Below are positions 1,387-12,218 of a stretch of 64,000 nucleotides of DNA, in pieces. The DNA is from a phage. A program made the translations under genes and the position numbers. Below the pieces are notes generated by a model. The model saw nothing but the letters and a program-made list of their open reading frames with translations, had not been told where the DNA came from and searched no databases. Position 1 is the stretch's first letter. Each line of letters starts with the position of its first letter. The stretch lies in sequence record PZ171032.1; one strand, given 5' to 3'.

Positions 1387-2571
1387 TTAAGCTTTAGCCA
1401 AAATGGCGCTAAACTCTTCACCAAACTCTTTTACAATCTTCATCAGGTTTGGGTATGCTTTGATCAACTGAGCAACAATCTTGTCACGCCCTTTACCGAT
1501 AAGCAAGGCATTTCCTAAGGCGTTAGGTTTCATCATCGCCATAAAGACTGAGAATACAAAATCTCGGTTCTCGTCCTTGAAATTTTCCCAAAGGAAATCG
1601 AGGAAGTTTGCCACACAGCTAACAAGATCTTCGTCGGAGATACTTGCATTTTCCATCATATTGCGAATAGCGATACAACCTTCAGATCCAAGAATCCACA
1701 AAATGTCTGGCTGCTTAGGACCTACGTATTCTTTGCAGCCACCTGCCATAATCCGACCGATTTCCGGTAAATTACGTTTCTTGGTGTGGTAAGTCCAGAT
1801 CTCTACCGCTGCAGTGTGACCAATAGCACCTTGTAGAAGAACACGGGCCATAGCGTCAGAAATAATACCGCTGTCAAAATCGTGCAAGATGTCAGATGCA
1901 GCAACCCAAGATCGCGGTGTGGCAAAAGATGGACAATTAATCTCAGCCATAGCCTCATAATTATCAATAGCTGAGGGAACTCTTTTCAAATATCCAATTA
2001 CAGAGGAATGCACCCCATTAAGGAATGCGTAGTCCTCAATAAACACCTCTGCATTGCTTGTAACCTCTACAATGATAAAACGGTTAGCCAGAGGGGCTTC
2101 GAGCGCCGAAAGAACCGCACCATCTGTAGAACGGTTACCCGCAGCCACAAAAACAGAACCCTTAGGGAATGCATAGGTGCCGCACTTGTGGTCAAGCATA
2201 ATTTGCATTGCAACCTTTTGCAGGTAGTTATCTGCATGAGTGAGCTCATCCAGAAAGATAATTCCGCTCCAGTCAGGATCCGCAGGCCAAAATTCTGGAA
2301 TTGCAAACACTGTACGTGTAGTTCCATCCGCTTCTACAGGGATAGGTAGCCCAGATAAGTCGGCAGGATCTTTATCTGACAGTCGCACGTCAACAAGGTT
2401 GTCATCTCGCTCACCGAACATATTATCAGCGATCTGCTTCATCACCTGGCTTTTACCCACACCCATTGGTCCCAAAATTAGGACAGATCGGCTATGACGT
2501 TGGGCAAACTGAATAATAGCTGGCAACTCACGGACAGTGATTTGACCACTTTCGAATACGTTTCTTGACAT
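1387..2571 (-). CDS. MoxR-like AAA+ ATPase
   Basis: 394 aa; Walker A LILGPMGVGKSQ, Walker B-like IIFLDELTHA, size and layout typical of AAA_5/MoxR (CobS-like) ATPases. Confidence 0.7.
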   Translation of the reverse strand: MSRNVFESGQITVRELPAIIQFAQRHSRSVLILGPMGVGKSQVMKQIADNMFGERDDNLVDVRLSDKDPADLSGLPIPVEADGTTRTVFAIPEFWPADPDWSGIIFLDELTHADNYLQKVAMQIMLDHKCGTYAFPKGSVFVAAGNRSTDGAVLSALEAPLANRFIIVEVTSNAEVFIEDYAFLNGVHSSVIGYLKRVPSAIDNYEAMAEINCPSFATPRSWVAASDILHDFDSGIISDAMARVLLQGAIGHTAAVEIWTYHTKKRNLPEIGRIMAGGCKEYVGPKQPDILWILGSEGCIAIRNMMENASISDEDLVSCVANFLDFLWENFKDENRDFVFSVFMAMMKPNALGNALLIGKGRDKIVAQLIKAYPNLMKIVKEFGEEFSAILAKA

Positions 2572-5069: not shown

Positions 5070-5109
5070 AAGTAAGTGCTCCTATGTTAGTTTTCTTTCG
5101 AATGGGTGC

Positions 5110-5138
5110 ACTATATTGTGGAGTTAGAGTAAAGTCAA
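5110..5138 (-). promoter_or_regulatory. sigma70-like promoter, leftward (TTGACT-17 bp-TATAGT)
   Basis: On minus strand: -35 TTGACT (plus 5133-5138), 17-bp spacer, -10 TATAGT (plus 5110-5115); upstream of gene 4170..5069. Confidence 0.55.
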
Positions 5139-5151
5139 CACGTTTTTGATG

Positions 5152-5180
5152 TTGACATCTGTTGAGACAATTGATACGAT
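5152..5180 (+). promoter_or_regulatory. sigma70-like promoter, rightward (TTGACA-17 bp-TACGAT)
   Basis: Consensus -35 TTGACA at 5152-5157, 17-bp spacer, -10 TACGAT at 5175-5180. Lies inside the 5' extension of ORF 5146..6189, so the gene more likely starts at 5212. Confidence 0.55.
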
Positions 5181-5211
5181 TTCTTCACTTACAGAGCACG
5201 AGAGACGACTC

Positions 5212-6189
5212 ATGAATCTTGAAAAATATTATACACCAGAAGAGTTAGAGCGCTTGCTCAAAAAATATAGACGCAAACAGAATAACGCACGGAAACGAGA
5301 TATAGAGTTCGACCTGTCATGGGAAGAATACCTCCTATTTGGTAAAAAACTTTTAGGAGATGGAGTATGCGACTATACCCTTATACCTTTTGACATGCAC
5401 ACAGATGAAAACGGGCTGGGGAATCCTTTCTACCCATCTCTGGAGCGGATAGATGATGAAGGTCCTTATGCGGTTGATAACTGTTGTGTGGTGGGATTGA
5501 GATGCAACTCTCTAAAGGACTGTCTGGTAGATAAAAAGACTGCAGTCTTGATTAAAGACGAAACTGATCGAAAAATTGTCCAGCAGATGATGCTCCACCT
5601 GAGCGAAGAGCGTATGGAGAAATTGAAAGGTGATTATACTTTTGAAGATTTCATCTTGCAATATGGAACGGAAGAGGATAAACTAGCACTCTTTGACGAA
5701 GAAGAGGAGGAAGATATGCTACCGATGTCTAAAGTTACTTATCGTGCACCCAAGAAGCACATTTCCGACATTGTAAACGAGCCTATCACAGAAGAGATTG
5801 AAGAAATGACGCAACAGGTGCATGAAGAGGAAAAAGAGACTCAGGAGGTCGAAGAGGAGATTACAGAAGAGGTTCCTGCACTACCTGATGATGTTGAGAT
5901 TGCCAAAGCTTACACTTTCTATTGTCAAACGTTCTACGATGTAGGTATGAAAGTTGATCTGTCGTTCAGCCAATTTAAGAGTTCGTATATTCGCAAATGC
6001 TGTGCTTTAACTGGTGAACGTCTTGGAGCTGGACTTAAACCCCTGTTGGTGACCGACTGGAATAAAGGTTTCACTAAAGGAAACTTTATGGTAGTATCTC
6101 CAATTATGGAGAAAGCTATGACAGATCTTATGAAGACCACCCGCATGACAATGACCGAGTTGGCAGGTATTTTCAAACACGTTAAATAA
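5212..6189 (+). CDS. hypothetical protein with two homologous half-domains; possible internal start at 5716
   Basis: ORF track 5146..6189; start moved to ATG 5212 downstream of promoter. N- and C-halves share a DLSW/DLSF..C..T...VTD/ERID..G...N..VV pattern; acidic linker; internal GAGGAGG RBS + ATG at 5716. Confidence 0.5.
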   Translation: MNLEKYYTPEELERLLKKYRRKQNNARKRDIEFDLSWEEYLLFGKKLLGDGVCDYTLIPFDMHTDENGLGNPFYPSLERIDDEGPYAVDNCCVVGLRCNSLKDCLVDKKTAVLIKDETDRKIVQQMMLHLSEERMEKLKGDYTFEDFILQYGTEEDKLALFDEEEEEDMLPMSKVTYRAPKKHISDIVNEPITEEIEEMTQQVHEEEKETQEVEEEITEEVPALPDDVEIAKAYTFYCQTFYDVGMKVDLSFSQFKSSYIRKCCALTGERLGAGLKPLLVTDWNKGFTKGNFMVVSPIMEKAMTDLMKTTRMTMTELAGIFKHVK

Positions 6190-6201
6190 TGACAGGGGCC
6201 A

Positions 6202-7683
6202 ATGGCCCCTTCTGGAGTTTTAATGGATAGCAGAAGTTCAGAAATCATTGCCTCGCAGAAAGATGATGCCCTGAGAATGTTGCAGGCTGCACGTATGTAT
6301 CTCCTTGAAAAGCTGCCGTTTTATGGCACACTACTGTCAGGGTTGCAGTTCGTAGAAAACCACACATGGTGCTCCACCATGGCAACCGACCATAAACGCA
6401 TCTATTACAGTCCTGAGTTCATTATGGGATTGGCTGATGAGCGCAAGGCTATTCTTAAGGCTTCTCTAACTGACGAGCAGTTTGAGATGGCTGAAGTTTT
6501 CTATTCCCCAAAATCTGTGAAAGAGGTGGCCTTCCTTCTGTCACATGAGGTGGGGCATATTATCTGTGATCATCTAGTCCGTGGTAAAAGCTTTGAGCCG
6601 GAACTGTTCAATATTGCTTGTGATCACGTTATCAACACAGGCCTTGTGGTTGACTTTAGCAAACCTCCTTGTGTTTTCTTCCCGAAGGGGAAAAGCACTA
6701 CGTTCATGAAAGGTAAGCCTTTTGGCTTCTTAGCCAGCTGCTACTGTGACATGAGGTTTCATGGATGGATTGCTGAGAACGTTTATGCAGTTCTTGATAA
6801 GCAAAGAGATCAGAATAACGGTAAAAGTAAGAACGGTAAAGGTGAGAACTCTCAAAGTGATAAGCGACAAACCGATGATCACATGAGTGGGAACGGTGGC
6901 ACCAGTGATAATCTTGGAAAGGCTATGGGGTATGATCAGCCACAACCTGTAATCAGCCAATCTGATAAAGATCAGGCCATGCAGGACTCTGGTGATATGC
7001 TGGAGGCAGCAATGCAAGCTTCCGGAGGTCGTTGCCCTGAGGCGGTGCGTGAGTTTGTCAAGAACAGGGGTAAGCCTGTAATCAACTATATAGACATCAT
7101 TAAGCAACGCATGTTGTCTAAACGAAAGGCTGAACTGACCTACAGAAAACCTGGTCGCCGATCTGGGTCTTTGACCAGCACAATGCGAAAAGTTGGGGCT
7201 ATAAACAAGAACCAGCACGTTATTGTTCCCGGTCGTAATCCGGAAAACACCATAGATATTGTTGTAGCTTTAGACGTTTCTGGCTCGATCTCTCAAAGAA
7301 CTTTAAAGAAAATGTTCAATGAAATCACCGGATTGTGCAATCTGTATAAAGAGTTTAAGGTTACAATGTTCTGTTGGTCAACTGAGGTTGGAGAGGTTAA
7401 AGTATACACTCGCGGTAACATAGATGAGATGATCAACTATGAGGTCCACTCAACATGGGGCACAACAGCTGCTTGCGTGTTCGAGTATCTAGATGCCAAC
7501 ATACCAAATGCAAAAGATGTCATCGTATTGACCGACCTATACTTTGAGCATAACTTTGAACAAAAGGCTGTTGACAACAAGTGGAAAAAGTACGATACTT
7601 TATGGGTTCTCACCGAAGGGTATAATAAAAATTATATCCCTAGCTTTGGGAAAACTGTGGAATTAATCGAGTACGCTAAGTAA
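6202..7683 (+). CDS. VWA-domain protein with N-terminal HExxH metallopeptidase-like domain (DUF2201-like)
   Basis: 493 aa; HEVGHIICDH zinc-peptidase-like motif near N-terminus; C-terminal IDIVVALDVSGSIS (DxSxS MIDAS motif of von Willebrand A domains). Confidence 0.65.
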   Translation: MAPSGVLMDSRSSEIIASQKDDALRMLQAARMYLLEKLPFYGTLLSGLQFVENHTWCSTMATDHKRIYYSPEFIMGLADERKAILKASLTDEQFEMAEVFYSPKSVKEVAFLLSHEVGHIICDHLVRGKSFEPELFNIACDHVINTGLVVDFSKPPCVFFPKGKSTTFMKGKPFGFLASCYCDMRFHGWIAENVYAVLDKQRDQNNGKSKNGKGENSQSDKRQTDDHMSGNGGTSDNLGKAMGYDQPQPVISQSDKDQAMQDSGDMLEAAMQASGGRCPEAVREFVKNRGKPVINYIDIIKQRMLSKRKAELTYRKPGRRSGSLTSTMRKVGAINKNQHVIVPGRNPENTIDIVVALDVSGSISQRTLKKMFNEITGLCNLYKEFKVTMFCWSTEVGEVKVYTRGNIDEMINYEVHSTWGTTAACVFEYLDANIPNAKDVIVLTDLYFEHNFEQKAVDNKWKKYDTLWVLTEGYNKNYIPSFGKTVELIEYAK

Positions 7684-7698
7684 GAGAGGAGGTTATTT

Positions 7699-7962
7699 AT
7701 GGCAACAGAGTTAAAATTTGCATCAAACCGTAAAACTAAGAAGTATCTGTCCTCAGTAGCTCCAGGCACTGTGGTGATGTTTGTTGATGAACTTGGGGAT
7801 GTGAATACAGCACTTGTTGTAAAATCACATCCTGCAAACATATATGTTGGGGTATTTGACCTGTTCAGAAAGGTGTTTGTAGAACTGCCTCACAGTTTGG
7901 TTGTTACAGAAATGGATGCCTGCATAGAAATTCTTGGCGAAGTTATGGTGGAGGAACAATAA
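7699..7962 (+). CDS. small protein, tandem paralog family member 1 of 4
   Basis: 87 aa; strong GAGGAGG RBS; shares K..GTVV...ILGE pattern with next genes. Confidence 0.6.
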   Translation: MATELKFASNRKTKKYLSSVAPGTVVMFVDELGDVNTALVVKSHPANIYVGVFDLFRKVFVELPHSLVVTEMDACIEILGEVMVEEQ

Positions 7963-8225
7963 TGGCTACCAGCATTGTATTCAATTCTAAGGTGAAGAAC
8001 AAAAAGCGTGCAGACAGTTTTCCGTGTGGGACCGTGGTAAGTTGCGACGGAGACGGCATTCAAAACATAGTTATGATTGTCAAAACAGGAGAACATTGTG
8101 TGTGGGGGTTCGATTTAGAAAATAATGAGTTGTACGATCTGCCGCCAAACATGAAAGTTACAGAGCTTGACACCAAAATTACCATCCTTGGAGAGACAAG
8201 CTATTCAAAAGAAGGAGGAGAATAA
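7962..8225 (+). CDS. small protein, tandem paralog family member 2 of 4
   Basis: 87 aa; ATGA start/stop overlap with member 1; GGAGG RBS; conserved CGTVV and ITILGE motifs. Confidence 0.6.
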   Translation: MATSIVFNSKVKNKKRADSFPCGTVVSCDGDGIQNIVMIVKTGEHCVWGFDLENNELYDLPPNMKVTELDTKITILGETSYSKEGGE

Positions 8226-8488
8226 TGACCACAAAAATCACTATCGCAGAACCGAAAGCTAACACTCAGCCTATCGAAAAGTTTAAGTGCGGTGAGGTGG
8301 TAACATTCACACCAGATAATGAAGATGCTAAGATTTTCGCAATGGTCACAGCTGAGTGGATGTGTGACAACACCACACAGGTTCTGCGTTTTGACACCTA
8401 TCTTACCGATGAAATCAGGAACGACAAGATTGTGACTGGTGTGGATACTGAGATTGTTTTCTACAAGAGCTTTTTAGAGGGTTTCTGA
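8225..8488 (+). CDS. small protein, tandem paralog family member 3 of 4
   Basis: 87 aa; ATGA overlap; AAGGAGG RBS; KCGEVVTF motif. Confidence 0.55.
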   Translation: MTTKITIAEPKANTQPIEKFKCGEVVTFTPDNEDAKIFAMVTAEWMCDNTTQVLRFDTYLTDEIRNDKIVTGVDTEIVFYKSFLEGF

Positions 8489-8489
8489 T

Positions 8490-8723
8490 ATGGCAAAAAT
8501 TAGAAAATTATCTAGCAATCAGGTTGTGAAAGACTTCGAATCTGGAGAGATTCTTTATGTTCGTGATGCAGATGACGAAGGTGAAGATCTCGTTATGTTG
8601 GTGGGGCACGCTGAGGACGGATGCATCCAAGCTGTTTTTCTTGAAACAGCTATGGTGCACTGGATAGAGCTGGACCTGAAAGCACGAAAACCTAAAGCAG
8701 AAATCCTGATTTACGAAGATTAA
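8490..8723 (+). CDS. small protein, tandem paralog family member 4 of 4 (divergent)
   Basis: 77 aa; GAGGG RBS; same size class, weaker similarity. Confidence 0.5.
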   Translation: MAKIRKLSSNQVVKDFESGEILYVRDADDEGEDLVMLVGHAEDGCIQAVFLETAMVHWIELDLKARKPKAEILIYED

Positions 8724-8739
8724 CAAAAAGGAGATAGCC

Positions 8740-9189
8740 GTGTTGAGCAAACGTGAATGCGACAGCATTAGCCTGAATTCTTATAAGAAACAATGGTTTG
8801 GGGTGGAAGTTTGCCGACTGCGGCTAGGCTCCTACCTGAACTTCGTTTATTATGAGAGTGACAGTCGTATCGTTTCTTATGAAGTGTTCTACACTAAGAA
8901 CACATTCGAACTGCGCCGTAAAGTAGATGGCGGGAGAACTACCCCCCAGAATAATTGGGAAACTATTCTGCCTCCAGATGTTATAGGAAGTCCCCTGAAT
9001 GTATCTGAAGATGAAAATCTTATGGTTCATGCTATGATGGGACTTGACAGCTTAGAGCTGGCAATCTATGATATGTCCATCGAAGCAGTTAAGCTGGACT
9101 ACATCGAAAACACTTTAGAGGAAGGTATCAAGAAGTTTCTCAGTGAGAAATTAAAAGACCACTTTCATAAGGAGCTATATCTGTTATGA
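8740..9189 (+). CDS. hypothetical protein
   Basis: 149 aa; GTG start preceded by AAGGAG. Confidence 0.5.
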   Translation: MLSKRECDSISLNSYKKQWFGVEVCRLRLGSYLNFVYYESDSRIVSYEVFYTKNTFELRRKVDGGRTTPQNNWETILPPDVIGSPLNVSEDENLMVHAMMGLDSLELAIYDMSIEAVKLDYIENTLEEGIKKFLSEKLKDHFHKELYLL

Positions 9190-9431
9190 AGACCCGTAAA
9201 GAACGTAACAAAATTTTACCTGGAGCTCTCGAACACCTGATGAAGTGCAGATCTATTTGGCACTCTGCCAAGGAAGGGCAGAAGGTGGTTGTGGTTAGTG
9301 ACAATACCAACCCGTTTGGAGATTATACCACCATGATGGCCCCATATGTCCGTGATGGCGTTGTAGAAGTGGTCCCTTACAACGGTTTGCATGAACGGCA
9401 CTTTGAAAGCACTTTGCTAGTGGAGCTATAG
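9186..9431 (+). CDS. hypothetical protein
   Basis: 81 aa; start overlaps upstream stop. Confidence 0.45.
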   Translation: MKTRKERNKILPGALEHLMKCRSIWHSAKEGQKVVVVSDNTNPFGDYTTMMAPYVRDGVVEVVPYNGLHERHFESTLLVEL

Positions 9432-9433
9432 TC

Positions 9434-10000
9434 ATGGCGGTCAATGTGGCTTACAACACAGGAAAGCTTGACAGAGACATTGGGTGTCTTGTCCTTTCAG
9501 ATACAGAAGAGTATTGGGGTTATGGGTTGCTGTCAGACCCACACCCGAGCAACCTTGTATCAACAGTGCTATACCGCTACGACCCTGTGCCAACGGTACA
9601 CGACAAAGACATTCACGACCTTCGGATCAAGTGTCTGGAAGATCTGCTGAACAATGGTTGCAACGATCTGCGGGTAGCCAAGGAGAAGCTTACAAACATT
9701 CACAAAGAGGAAGTGATGAGTACCCTCAGTAAAAGATCAGTGCACAAAAAGATGATGCTGAACTTTGCAATGGGTATCTACATGGATGGGTATAAGGGAG
9801 GGGATCCGATCCTCAAGCTTCGCTGCCCGACACTGTGGGAAAGAGTGGTTGACAGTAAGGACGGTACTGCCCTGCTCGAACTCCACACTGCAGGTTGGAT
9901 TTGGCGGTATGTAGACGGATACCCTCTGTGGGCATGTGGACCTGGGGAATTTGTTGACAGACCTAGCGCGGTGGTGGACTTACTATTGCAGTTTGAATAA
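9434..10000 (+). CDS. hypothetical protein
   Basis: 188-aa ORF; the two overlapping plus ORFs in other frames (9444..9650, 9484..9732) are treated as spurious. Confidence 0.5.
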   Translation: MAVNVAYNTGKLDRDIGCLVLSDTEEYWGYGLLSDPHPSNLVSTVLYRYDPVPTVHDKDIHDLRIKCLEDLLNNGCNDLRVAKEKLTNIHKEEVMSTLSKRSVHKKMMLNFAMGIYMDGYKGGDPILKLRCPTLWERVVDSKDGTALLELHTAGWIWRYVDGYPLWACGPGEFVDRPSAVVDLLLQFE

Positions 10001-10057
10001 AAAGGTGAGTTATAAGGTATTCATACACCTACCAACAATACAACAGGAGAGACTAAG

Positions 10058-10333
10058 ATGACGAAAGAAGAGGCCGACGTATTAGATTTTGCACTAGAGG
10101 CTACGCAGGAGGCTTTGGTGTTAGCTTGGAAAATGAACCAGCGTGCTGCAGAATGCAACCGCCGCATCAATGAGATCTTGGGCATGTCTATGTATGATTT
10201 CACCATGCATGCCGGAGAGATTCCTGAATTAACTGCCGAGATGAATGATCTTGACGATAAAATTAATATCATTCTGAAGACAGCAGAAACAACTCACCAA
10301 ACCGCCCGTAAATTTATCAACGAGAAGGTGTGA
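10058..10333 (+). CDS. hypothetical coiled-coil protein
   Basis: 91 aa; CAGGAGAG RBS. Confidence 0.5.
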   Translation: MTKEEADVLDFALEATQEALVLAWKMNQRAAECNRRINEILGMSMYDFTMHAGEIPELTAEMNDLDDKINIILKTAETTHQTARKFINEKV

Positions 10334-10800
10334 ATATGGACTACAGCTACTGCGGGGAAGAAGTCCCTTTTAATTACAGCAATCTTACCACGAGCAATCC
10401 ATATGAGACTCGCCACGGCACGCACATCATTGCCATCGACTTTGATGGAACGTTTAATGCGAGCCCTTTCATCTTCTCCCGCCTGATCAGGGATCTGAAG
10501 AAGGAGGGGTGGACAGTCTACCTTGTGACTTTCCGATTCATTACTCAAGACAATGTAGACATTGAGTATTGGCGCAAGGAGCTCGATGTTGGTGTGTTCT
10601 ACACAGGTGGTGTTCAGAAGGCAGCCTACCTGGCGCAGTTTGATATCTACCCAGATATCTGGATTGATGATTCTCCGGCATGTATTCCGGCTAAGAATCA
10701 GTTAGAGTTTGCAATGAAGGAGATTGAGTATAAGTCTGAGGCTAAGCGGAACGGATGGCCCTTTATTATTGAAGATTACCCAGATCCTGAACCGGAGTAA
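10330..10800 (+). CDS. HAD-superfamily hydrolase (putative nucleotidase/phosphatase)
   Basis: 156 aa; motif I IIAIDFDGT (hhhhDxDGT), LVTFR (motif II-like), WIDDSP (acidic motif IV-like). Confidence 0.5.
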   Translation: MNMDYSYCGEEVPFNYSNLTTSNPYETRHGTHIIAIDFDGTFNASPFIFSRLIRDLKKEGWTVYLVTFRFITQDNVDIEYWRKELDVGVFYTGGVQKAAYLAQFDIYPDIWIDDSPACIPAKNQLEFAMKEIEYKSEAKRNGWPFIIEDYPDPEPE

Positions 10801-10805
10801 GAGCC

Positions 10806-10976
10806 ATGAGGCGAAGATATCATTACCTGATGTGGAAGTTATATCAAAATGCTGCCAAAGCCTATCATACCATGTTTGGCAATGACGATCACTACATCAT
10901 GTTACATCTCACCGCTATTGAGCATCACAATGAGTGGATTCATGCAATCGTGGCAGGTGATAAAGACTTTAAGTAA
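10806..10976 (+). CDS. small hypothetical protein (56 aa)
   Basis: Hand-found ORF below track threshold; GGAG ~9 nt upstream of ATG; fills intergenic gap. Confidence 0.3.
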   Translation: MRRRYHYLMWKLYQNAAKAYHTMFGNDDHYIMLHLTAIEHHNEWIHAIVAGDKDFK

Positions 10977-11026: not shown

Positions 11027-11407
11027 ATGTGCAAGTGTAAATCCTATAATTGGAAAGTGAAAGGTGCCAATCATCCAAATGTTATCGTTGATGTGCCTAA
11101 AAATCTTCGTGACGGCAAAAAACGTGTGTGCCTTGATAAGTGTATGGCTAAGCCTATCATGAGTTTGTGGGCAGCAGGTTTGAAAACGCTAAACTGCTGC
11201 TGTGGTCATAACAAAGATATTCCAAGCATCATTATCCCAGAAGATGCAGATCCTAAAGCTTATGCCAAAATACTGACCCGCTATCCCAGCACCTTCCTGA
11301 TCGGAAAATGGTGTCACGATGAACTCCAATGGTGGATAGCCTATGGTAGTATAGGCACTACTTTTGGCTTCCCAGCTTTGTCAGAGCGCTATGTCAAAGT
11401 GTCATAA
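11027..11407 (+). CDS. hypothetical cysteine-rich protein
   Basis: 126 aa; CKCK, CLDKC, CCCGH cysteine clusters; GGAG RBS. Confidence 0.5.
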   Translation: MCKCKSYNWKVKGANHPNVIVDVPKNLRDGKKRVCLDKCMAKPIMSLWAAGLKTLNCCCGHNKDIPSIIIPEDADPKAYAKILTRYPSTFLIGKWCHDELQWWIAYGSIGTTFGFPALSERYVKVS

Positions 11408-11511: not shown

Positions 11512-11540
11512 TTGACACCACCACCAGATCTATATATAAT
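11512..11540 (+). promoter_or_regulatory. consensus sigma70 promoter (TTGACA-17 bp-TATAAT)
   Basis: Exact -35 TTGACA at 11512-11517, 17-bp spacer, exact -10 TATAAT at 11535-11540; about 33 nt upstream of ATG 11573. Confidence 0.6.
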
Positions 11541-11572: not shown

Positions 11573-11980
11573 ATGGATAATCTTGCAGATGTAAATGTCG
11601 AAATTGTTAAACTAAAGTTCTTGGGCTTTCGGGACCCTTATTCTTTAACAGCCATACTAATGGATACTCACTTCACACCAGGTAAAGAGTACACTGCCTT
11701 CCGTTATATTTGCGGAGATCACGAATCAGCTTACAGTGTGAATACAAACCTCGGCGAGGGATATTTCATCAGAGATATCACAGATCACTTGTGGGGCATG
11801 TGGGAGTTGGTGGAGGAAGAGAATAAATCCCTTCCTAAAGAGATTTGGGTGCACACCTTCCACACAGGTAAGTTTGGAGGTACGGAACATAAGTCTATCC
11901 ACTATGATGAAGAAAGTGCCATCAAACAACAAGCTGTGCTTGGTGGATCTATAGAAAAATTTGTTAAATGCGAGGACTGA
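11573..11980 (+). CDS. hypothetical protein
   Basis: 135 aa; GAGGAG RBS. Confidence 0.5.
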   Translation: MDNLADVNVEIVKLKFLGFRDPYSLTAILMDTHFTPGKEYTAFRYICGDHESAYSVNTNLGEGYFIRDITDHLWGMWELVEEENKSLPKEIWVHTFHTGKFGGTEHKSIHYDEESAIKQQAVLGGSIEKFVKCED

Positions 11981-12190: not shown

Positions 12191-12218
12191 AAAGAAAGGG
12201 GCCGTTTGGCCCCTTTTT
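12191..12218. terminator. bidirectional rho-independent terminator between convergent blocks
   Basis: GGGGCC-GTTT-GGCCCC hairpin (12198-12213) flanked by A-run upstream and T-run downstream; sits between plus gene ending 12184 and minus gene ending 12232. Confidence 0.7.

Follow-up and report, generated by a model that had tools for sequence, protein, structure and literature searches.

The 64,000-nucleotide stretch of phage DNA analyzed here (sequence record PZ171032.1; hereafter the window) comes from a Murica-type Vequintavirus, an rV5-like Escherichia coli myophage, and carries at positions 7699-8723 a tandem array of four small genes, referred to as A to D. The genes and the ribosome-binding site of the first one are as follows.

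7699..7962, plus strand: gene A, 87 amino acids (aa), variable-slot member, phrog_10698 (from the list of open reading frames, ORFs)
7962..8225, plus strand: gene B, 87 aa, variable-slot member, phrog_10698 (ORF list)
8225..8488, plus strand: gene C, 87 aa, ultra-conserved member, phrog_12861 (ORF list)
8490..8723, plus strand: gene D, 77 aa, ultra-conserved and most divergent member, phrog_12046 (ORF list)
7684..7692, plus strand: Shine-Dalgarno sequence of gene A, GAGAGGAGG (from the sequence)

The four consecutive plus-strand ORFs have exactly the coordinates and lengths (87, 87, 87 and 77 aa) given in a preliminary description of this DNA, and A-D are present as annotated coding sequences in the GenBank records of near-identical phages. 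The same description had the genes joined by ATGA overlaps, of which there are none: the A/B and B/C junctions are TAATG, with an overlap of one nucleotide, and the C/D junction is TGA-t-ATG, with a spacer of one nucleotide. A near-consensus Shine-Dalgarno sequence, claimed for every gene, was found for A (GAGAGGAGG), B (GGTGGAGGA) and C (GAAGGAGGAG), while D has a weaker AGAGGG. Similarly, the basic N-terminus that had been ascribed to all four proteins is present in A and B (+4 over the first 20 residues) but barely so in C and D (+1), and the conserved pattern is loose, only M1, one glycine (G23 of A) and one isoleucine being invariant across A-D. With a GC content of 0.38-0.43, the array does not stand out from its surroundings. 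An antisense ORF of 86 aa (8508-8768, minus strand) overlaps D; it carries no annotation in the records examined and is most likely spurious.

Comparison of the four proteins revealed mutual similarity above chance, in keeping with their earlier designation as tandem paralogues. A and B share 37% identity over their full length (blastp, E = 2.6e-11), and a profile of A/B-type sequences both aligned with C over 76 columns (hhalign probability 89%, P = 2.5e-6) and recovered C from 884 ORFs by hmmsearch (E = 2.9e-5). Against a profile built from the A, B and C types only, D scored 16.5 bits, a value that none of 5000 composition-preserving shuffles attained, and reversed D scored 4.6 bits; direct profile-profile comparison of D with A/B or with C was weak when taken alone (P = 0.008 and 0.03). 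Additionally, P0030, a single-copy relative in the distant lineage L027, is the sole ORF of its locus that matches all three sub-profiles (1.6e-8, 0.016 and 0.03). Because the blastp, profile, shuffle and P0030 results can be taken together, we accepted A-D as one family. The search for DNA repeats within 7600-8800 returned a single 12-nt chance pair, and therefore no recent duplication is indicated. The small ORF gp018 (9186-9431), which has a 'GQKVVVV' motif, was considered as a fifth member and rejected, as 1947 of 5000 shuffles scored equally, which is chance level.

The statement that A-D belong to no recognized family held in the searches performed. The Pfam search returned sub-threshold noise only, and no matches were obtained in NCBIfam, PADLOC or, with the family profile, the PDB sequences. 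In PHROGs all four have full-length matches (E = 1e-41 to 1e-62), which fall into three families labelled 'unknown function'. These families, phrog_10698, phrog_12861 and phrog_12046, are kept in PHROGs as unrelated; the profile comparisons, together with P0030, show them to be one superfamily. At greater depth, a word-indexed search of 5.8 billion proteins gave 28 clusters and an exhaustive hidden Markov model scan of 1.84 billion representative proteins gave 9 matches, all of them family members, so both of these remote-homology searches returned the family alone, with no remote link. A search for related loci with the D alignment yielded two IMG/VR loci only. Furthermore, in five other genera of Vequintavirinae (represented by Av-05, PVP-SE1, BIS47, Hena1 and CB7) no family member was found in the syntenic region of about 10 kb, where the DUF2201 gene that precedes the array in the window is directly followed by the homolog of gp017, the gene after the array. 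Several genes of 85-88 aa near DUF2201 elsewhere (PVP-SE1 gp217, Av05_00169, BIS47_217, Hena1 gp133 and others) were tried as members, and none scored. Because the deep searches find members only and the other genera are without the array, the family is an invention of, and private to, Vequintavirus-like phages. DUF2201 homologs occur in 462 phage records and the family in 118.

The AlphaFold2 model of B is an all-beta barrel with a confident core (pLDDT 77, pTM 0.62), and the model of D, built from its own shallow alignment, is all-beta with its strands in the same order (pLDDT 68). These independently modelled members thus agree in fold and in the order of their secondary-structure elements, which was the outcome of the structure prediction that the preliminary description had proposed as a check. 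The predicted fold is a small SH3/Tudor/LSm-like beta-barrel, which is generic and by itself names no function. The top structural matches of B were Tudor and ribosomal L2 SH3-like domains, not Sm proteins. Compared with known Tudor, SH3-like and Sm-like domains (PDB 4iup, SAWADEE; 3pnw, TDRD3 Tudor; 1c04, ribosomal L2 SH3-like; 1kq1, Hfq), the family shows 2-20% identity and no profile match, A-D are acidic and no N-terminal Sm helix is predicted; the likeness is one of fold class, not of a family defined by function. In a Foldseek search against viral models (BFVD), the family's own members came first, followed by small uncharacterized proteins of N4-like and phiEco32-like podophages, including N4 gp21 and A0A8F3C9H7 of phage SU7 (72-87 aa, E = 1e-3 to 2e-2, TM-score 0.6-0.8). 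The latter two phage groups also encode DUF2201/VWA genes; however, at 11-21% identity their proteins are not linked to A-D by sequence, and no function is known for any of them. All members of the family are acidic (isoelectric point 4.2-5.7, net charge -1 to -9), and the charge is split between an acidic barrel body and the first 20 residues, which carry +1 to +4.

The number of members varies among genomes. About 74 GenBank genomes (rV5 type) have one first-slot gene, X (rV5 gp014), followed by C and D, which makes three copies, and about 44 (Murica type) have A and B followed by C and D, which makes four; four genes are also present in L017 and L030, two divergent lineages from metagenomes or assemblies. 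A Murica-type phage of the BASEL collection, Bas51 (WalterGehring, MZ501111), carries A to D as well. In the more distant L027 the single member P0030 lies directly 3' of the DUF2201 gene, and the L024 lineage has a solo C-type gene (78-81% identical) directly 5' of the Srd-like gene, three genes from DUF2201. C and D were found in 118 of the 118 records having a first-slot gene (C with at least 95% identity in 117 of them), and the length, order and junctions of the array are kept in these 118 genomes.

Comparison of the window with rV5 located the difference in the first slot. Neighboring genes are 91-100% identical and C and D 99-100%, while A and B are about 40% identical to X; the background in which X and A+B alternate is 96-100% identical. 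At the DNA level, the two phages agree over the ribosome-binding site and as far as the fourth codon (ATGGCAACAGAG); identity is lost from codon 5 and returns precisely with the TAATG in which C begins. Such a pattern, with one gene (X) in the place of two (A and B), shows whole-gene cassette replacement with breakpoints at gene boundaries. Between the window and L030, the synonymous divergence (dS) of the A+B block is only 0.21-0.27 while the neighbors are saturated, and the block therefore appears to have been recently exchanged. Overall, the distribution shows that the family arose and expanded (to one, then three, then four copies) within one genus.

Selection on the two parts of the array was compared through the ratio of non-synonymous to synonymous divergence (dN/dS). 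Relative to L017, the neighboring proteins share 37-82% identity and their synonymous sites are saturated; C and D are 98 and 95% identical (dS about 0.63; dN/dS = 0.024 and 0.043, respectively). Relative to L030, the neighbors are 41-79% identical and again saturated, and C and D are 97 and 91% identical (dS about 1.3; dN/dS = 0.013 and 0.032). Because dS is as high as about 1.3 at such low dN/dS, the conservation of C and D is attributable to purifying selection, not to recent transfer. Gene A is 94% identical to its L030 counterpart with dN/dS = 0.12 (0.21 relative to L017), and B is 100% identical, with no non-synonymous and 12 synonymous differences (dN/dS = 0). These L030 values lend no support to positive selection on either A or B. 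The array had been called a diversifying family; that term is apt for the first slot only, where the diversity comes from cassette replacement instead of positive selection, and does not apply to C and D, whose evolution between lineages is about ten times slower than that of A and B. Elsewhere in the window, the cysteine-rich gp024 (11027-11407, plus strand; phrog_12958, 'unknown function') is conserved like C and D in divergent lineages (94-95% aa identity, dN/dS = 0.05-0.07), and its homolog in L024 (9558-9986) lies directly 5' of the solo C-type gene; co-conservation of gp024 with C, or a functional link between them, is possible.

The array belongs to a rightward operon whose order is promoter, Srd-like gene, hairpin, DUF2201 gene, A-D and about ten further small genes, and which ends at a bidirectional terminator near 12195-12216. 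The features 5' of the array, together with a MoxR-type gene on the opposite strand, are as follows.

1387-2571, minus strand: MoxR-type ATPase gene, orthologue of bas54_0063 (PHROG 'ATPase', E = 2e-110)
5152..5180, plus strand: sigma70-like promoter of the early operon, TTGACA-17-TACGAT with TG upstream (consensus scan and sequence)
5212..6189, plus strand: Srd-like 'anti-sigma factor' gene, the first gene of the operon (PHROG matches)
6194..6210, no strand assigned: GC-rich hairpin GGGGCC-AAT-GGCCCC between the Srd-like and DUF2201 genes (sequence and scan)
6223..7683, plus strand: gene for a DUF2201 putative metallopeptidase with a VWA-like domain, directly 5' of the array (Pfam PF13203 and PF09967)
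7571..7599, plus strand: candidate internal promoter, sigma70-like TTGACA-17-GATACT, in the 3' end of the DUF2201 gene (scan)

Placement of the array in an early region was borne out in so far as the operon is of early type: its promoter at 5152-5180 is the counterpart, at the same place, of P11 annotated in rV5, and is predicted in phage Gotham too. Early expression of A-D is presumed from these host-type sigma70 promoters. The internal motif at 7571-7599, about 100 nt 5' of gene A, may be the array's own promoter, downstream of the hairpin. The 35-nt stretch that holds it is identical in the window, rV5, L011 and L017 (the DUF2201 gene as a whole is 74% nucleotide-identical to that of L017), the motif is conserved at synonymous positions across lineages, and in the distant L027 both hexamers have moved by one codon, giving a perfect TTGACA-17-TATAAT. 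The same perfect consensus is found in the window at 11512-11540 (plus strand), 5' of the gene at 11573, and is predicted at the same place in Gotham.

The PHROG matches of the first gene are to Srd, an anti-sigma factor that is a decoy of sigma70, and many records use the same naming; its start at 5212 was taken from the Murica annotation. In L027 and L028, a vequintavirus-like metagenomic phage, a TnpB-like gene with OrfB_IS605 and Cas12f1-like_TNB domains (119-1258) lies directly 5' of the Srd-like gene. The hairpin at 6194-6210 is annotated as a terminator in Murica, and it is possibly a terminator or an attenuator. For the DUF2201 gene the mechanical ORF start (6202) falls within the hairpin, and the start annotated at 6223, which has a GGAG ribosome-binding site, is the more plausible one. 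This gene is split into gp012 and gp013 in the rV5 reference (NC_011041, 2524-3985), apparently by a frameshift; the window and other phages have an uninterrupted copy. The 'HNH endonuclease' labels that RefSeq and PHROGs give to the Srd-like and DUF2201 genes appear to be a propagated mis-annotation; for 6223-7683 the label is doubtful because Pfam gives DUF2201 domains (PF13203, 9e-28; PF09967, 3.4e-11). Similarly, the 'tail protein' label on the gp017 homolog (8740-9189) is apparently a mis-annotation, as its position in an early operon argues otherwise.

Megablast of 5100-10900 returned 121 phage records, all of them rV5-like E. coli myophages of the genus Vequintavirus, and 114 of these reach a query coverage of at least 80% with 90-99.6% identity; the top matches are Alma, pangalan, CM1 and Murica. 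Sixteen GenBank records named 'UNVERIFIED Campylobacter phage' (MG0656xx, e.g., L012 and L016) are vequintaviruses with about 98% identity to E. coli phages over this region, and their Campylobacter host label looks doubtful.

Experimental data bearing on the array come from transposon sequencing (HIDEN-SEQ) of phage Bas54, reported in a 2025 preprint (bioRxiv 10.1101/2025.11.20.689424). Bas54 (MaxBurger, MZ501093.1) has an array of the type X, C and D: bas54_0054 is X (98% identical to rV5 gp014), bas54_0053 is C (one residue different from C of the window) and bas54_0052 is D (identical to D of the window). The insertion data thus cover X, C and D, and A and B appear in no study found. On E. 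coli K-12 all three genes are non-essential, with 17 of 17, 13 of 15 and 12 of 12 TA sites hit, respectively (bioRxiv 10.1101/2025.11.20.689424), which fits the expectation for accessory genes, and redundancy among the paralogues could mask insertion effects. The conditional values cited below are those of one resampling table of the preprint, which compares K-12 with one clinical isolate (CFE303 or CFE311). As stored, the sheets for CFE303 and for CFE311 in its Extended Data Table 8 may be duplicates: both have 27 significant genes in the header, and the rows compared between them are identical. No literature was found under the locus tags of rV5 or under protein accessions.

Small acidic phage proteins that are made early and act by binding macromolecules offer a general parallel for what A-D may do. 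Our preferred reading, to which we give a probability of about 0.5, is that A-D are accessory small acidic beta-barrels and candidate stoichiometric binders for host takeover or counter-defence; binding of host factors is the best guess at their function. The genes would be transcribed early from the host-type sigma70 promoters and translated as a coupled chain; they would be unnecessary for growth on laboratory strains of E. coli and nevertheless strongly maintained by purifying selection. Other macromolecules would be bound stoichiometrically, by the surface of the barrel together with the N-terminal arm, the near-invariant C and D addressing invariant targets and the first-slot genes (A and B; X in rV5) addressing variable ones, so that the latter would be traded between phages as whole-gene cassettes. 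Both the binding mechanism and the identity of any target we infer.

Several points weigh against this reading. A partner, a toxicity or a defence phenotype is known for no member of the family. The structure models were built on shallow alignments of 6-8 sequences, and the four other models of D have a pLDDT of only about 50. The conservation of C and D, combined with their dispensability in the laboratory, could equally mean a role outside defence. In the resampling table, X and C are neutral on the clinical isolate (log2 fold change +0.46 and +0.33), and the decrease for D (-1.32, q = 0.68) is not significant (bioRxiv 10.1101/2025.11.20.689424).

A more specific form of host interaction, which we regard as tentative, is a two-tier module in which C and D bind an invariant host hub or a widespread defence component and the first slot is a swappable specificity cassette. 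The cassettes (X, A+B, A'+B' and P0030-like) would be traded against variable defences, with recombination taking place at the TAATG junctions and at the conserved start codon. If this were true, the array would represent a new family of proteins for anti-defence or host takeover that has its own site for cassette exchange.

Less likely than such a module is that A-D are RNA-binding regulators of LSm/Hfq type, perhaps forming rings, that adjust, early in infection, the stability or the translation of mRNA. The closest described analog of the array belongs here: T4 GoF along with MotB.1 and Frd.2, early proteins of Tevenvirinae with an LSm-like fold, for which a role in mRNA stability or translation has been hypothesized (PMC12152347). 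The likeness is one of kind. Both sets are small, private to their phages, dispensable in the laboratory, early (presumptively for A-D) and present as several nearly dissimilar paralogues per genome, and for both a bent five-stranded beta-barrel of the SH3/LSm class is predicted. However, the T4 proteins are of 119-141 aa, have two domains (an N-terminal barrel, a linker and a C-terminal domain) and are scattered in the genome, whereas A-D are single-domain proteins of 77-88 aa, encoded in tandem with translational coupling in a different phage subfamily. Profile comparison of the family with GoF and MotB.1, the two compared, gave no sign of relatedness (hhalign probability 0.1%, P about 0.5). 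Nor do A-D show the N-terminal alpha-helix and the Sm1 and Sm2 motifs that, with five strands, define Sm/LSm/Hfq proteins: the models of B and D have no such helix, there is no Pfam LSM or Hfq match at E up to 1, and Tudor and L2 domains precede Sm proteins among the structural matches of B. The acidity of all members, and of the barrel body in particular, disfavors RNA binding without excluding it.

About equally doubtful is that A-D are adaptors, substrates or regulators of a module of the MoxR ATPase and the DUF2201 protein, which counters the DS-28 defence system in Bas54. In the preprint, MoxR and bas54_0140 are the reported counter-defence genes against DS-28 (bioRxiv 10.1101/2025.11.20.689424). 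According to the resampling table, MoxR is strongly required on the clinical isolate (log2 fold change -7.23) and DUF2201 (bas54_0055) is needed as well (-2.20, q = 0.009); D and bas54_0051, the gp017 homolog (-2.28), show the same trend, neither significantly (bioRxiv 10.1101/2025.11.20.689424). The location of the array directly 3' of the DUF2201 gene in the same operon, likewise that of P0030 in L027, is consistent with such a link. However, the five other Vequintavirinae genera have MoxR and DUF2201 and no array, so the genes do not co-occur as partners would; insertions in X and C are neutral in the same table where MoxR is essential; and the solo C-type gene of L024 is 5' of the Srd-like gene, away from DUF2201. 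Among the features of the region, the pair of MoxR (minus strand) and DUF2201 (plus strand) probably holds the more immediate interest.

It is less probable again that the paralogues form one obligate hetero-oligomer, similar to an Sm ring, with equal amounts of the subunits ensured by translational coupling. Coupled start and stop codons, the paralogy of the barrels and the N-terminal strand of the B model, which could augment an adjacent sheet, would suit such an assembly; a copy number of 1, 3 or 4, the occurrence of C alone in L024, the replacement of A and B by a single X, and the tenfold slower evolution of C and D would not. Finally, the view that the array consists, wholly or partly, of chance ORFs or of duplicates in decay has nothing in its favor except the small size of the ORFs and their lack of annotation; it is refuted by the selection data (dN/dS = 0-0.2 with many synonymous changes) and disagrees with the length, order and junctions kept in 118 genomes, the strong ribosome-binding sites and the confident barrel core.

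The array is a well-characterized candidate rather than a discovery, and A-D are reasonable but unproven candidates for host-interaction factors. Therapy and biocontrol make use of vequintaviruses, E. coli phages with a broad host range, and for most of the early genes of these phages no function is known. Here three PHROGs of 'unknown function' are merged into one superfamily of predicted small beta-barrels and placed in a fold class. Two experimental handles follow from the array, namely the pair C and D, extremely constrained yet dispensable in the laboratory, and the cleanly bounded site at which X and A+B are swapped. The rV5-type and Murica-type phages of the BASEL collection form natural isogenic-like pairs, which could be used to look for differences in host range or in the evasion of host defences.

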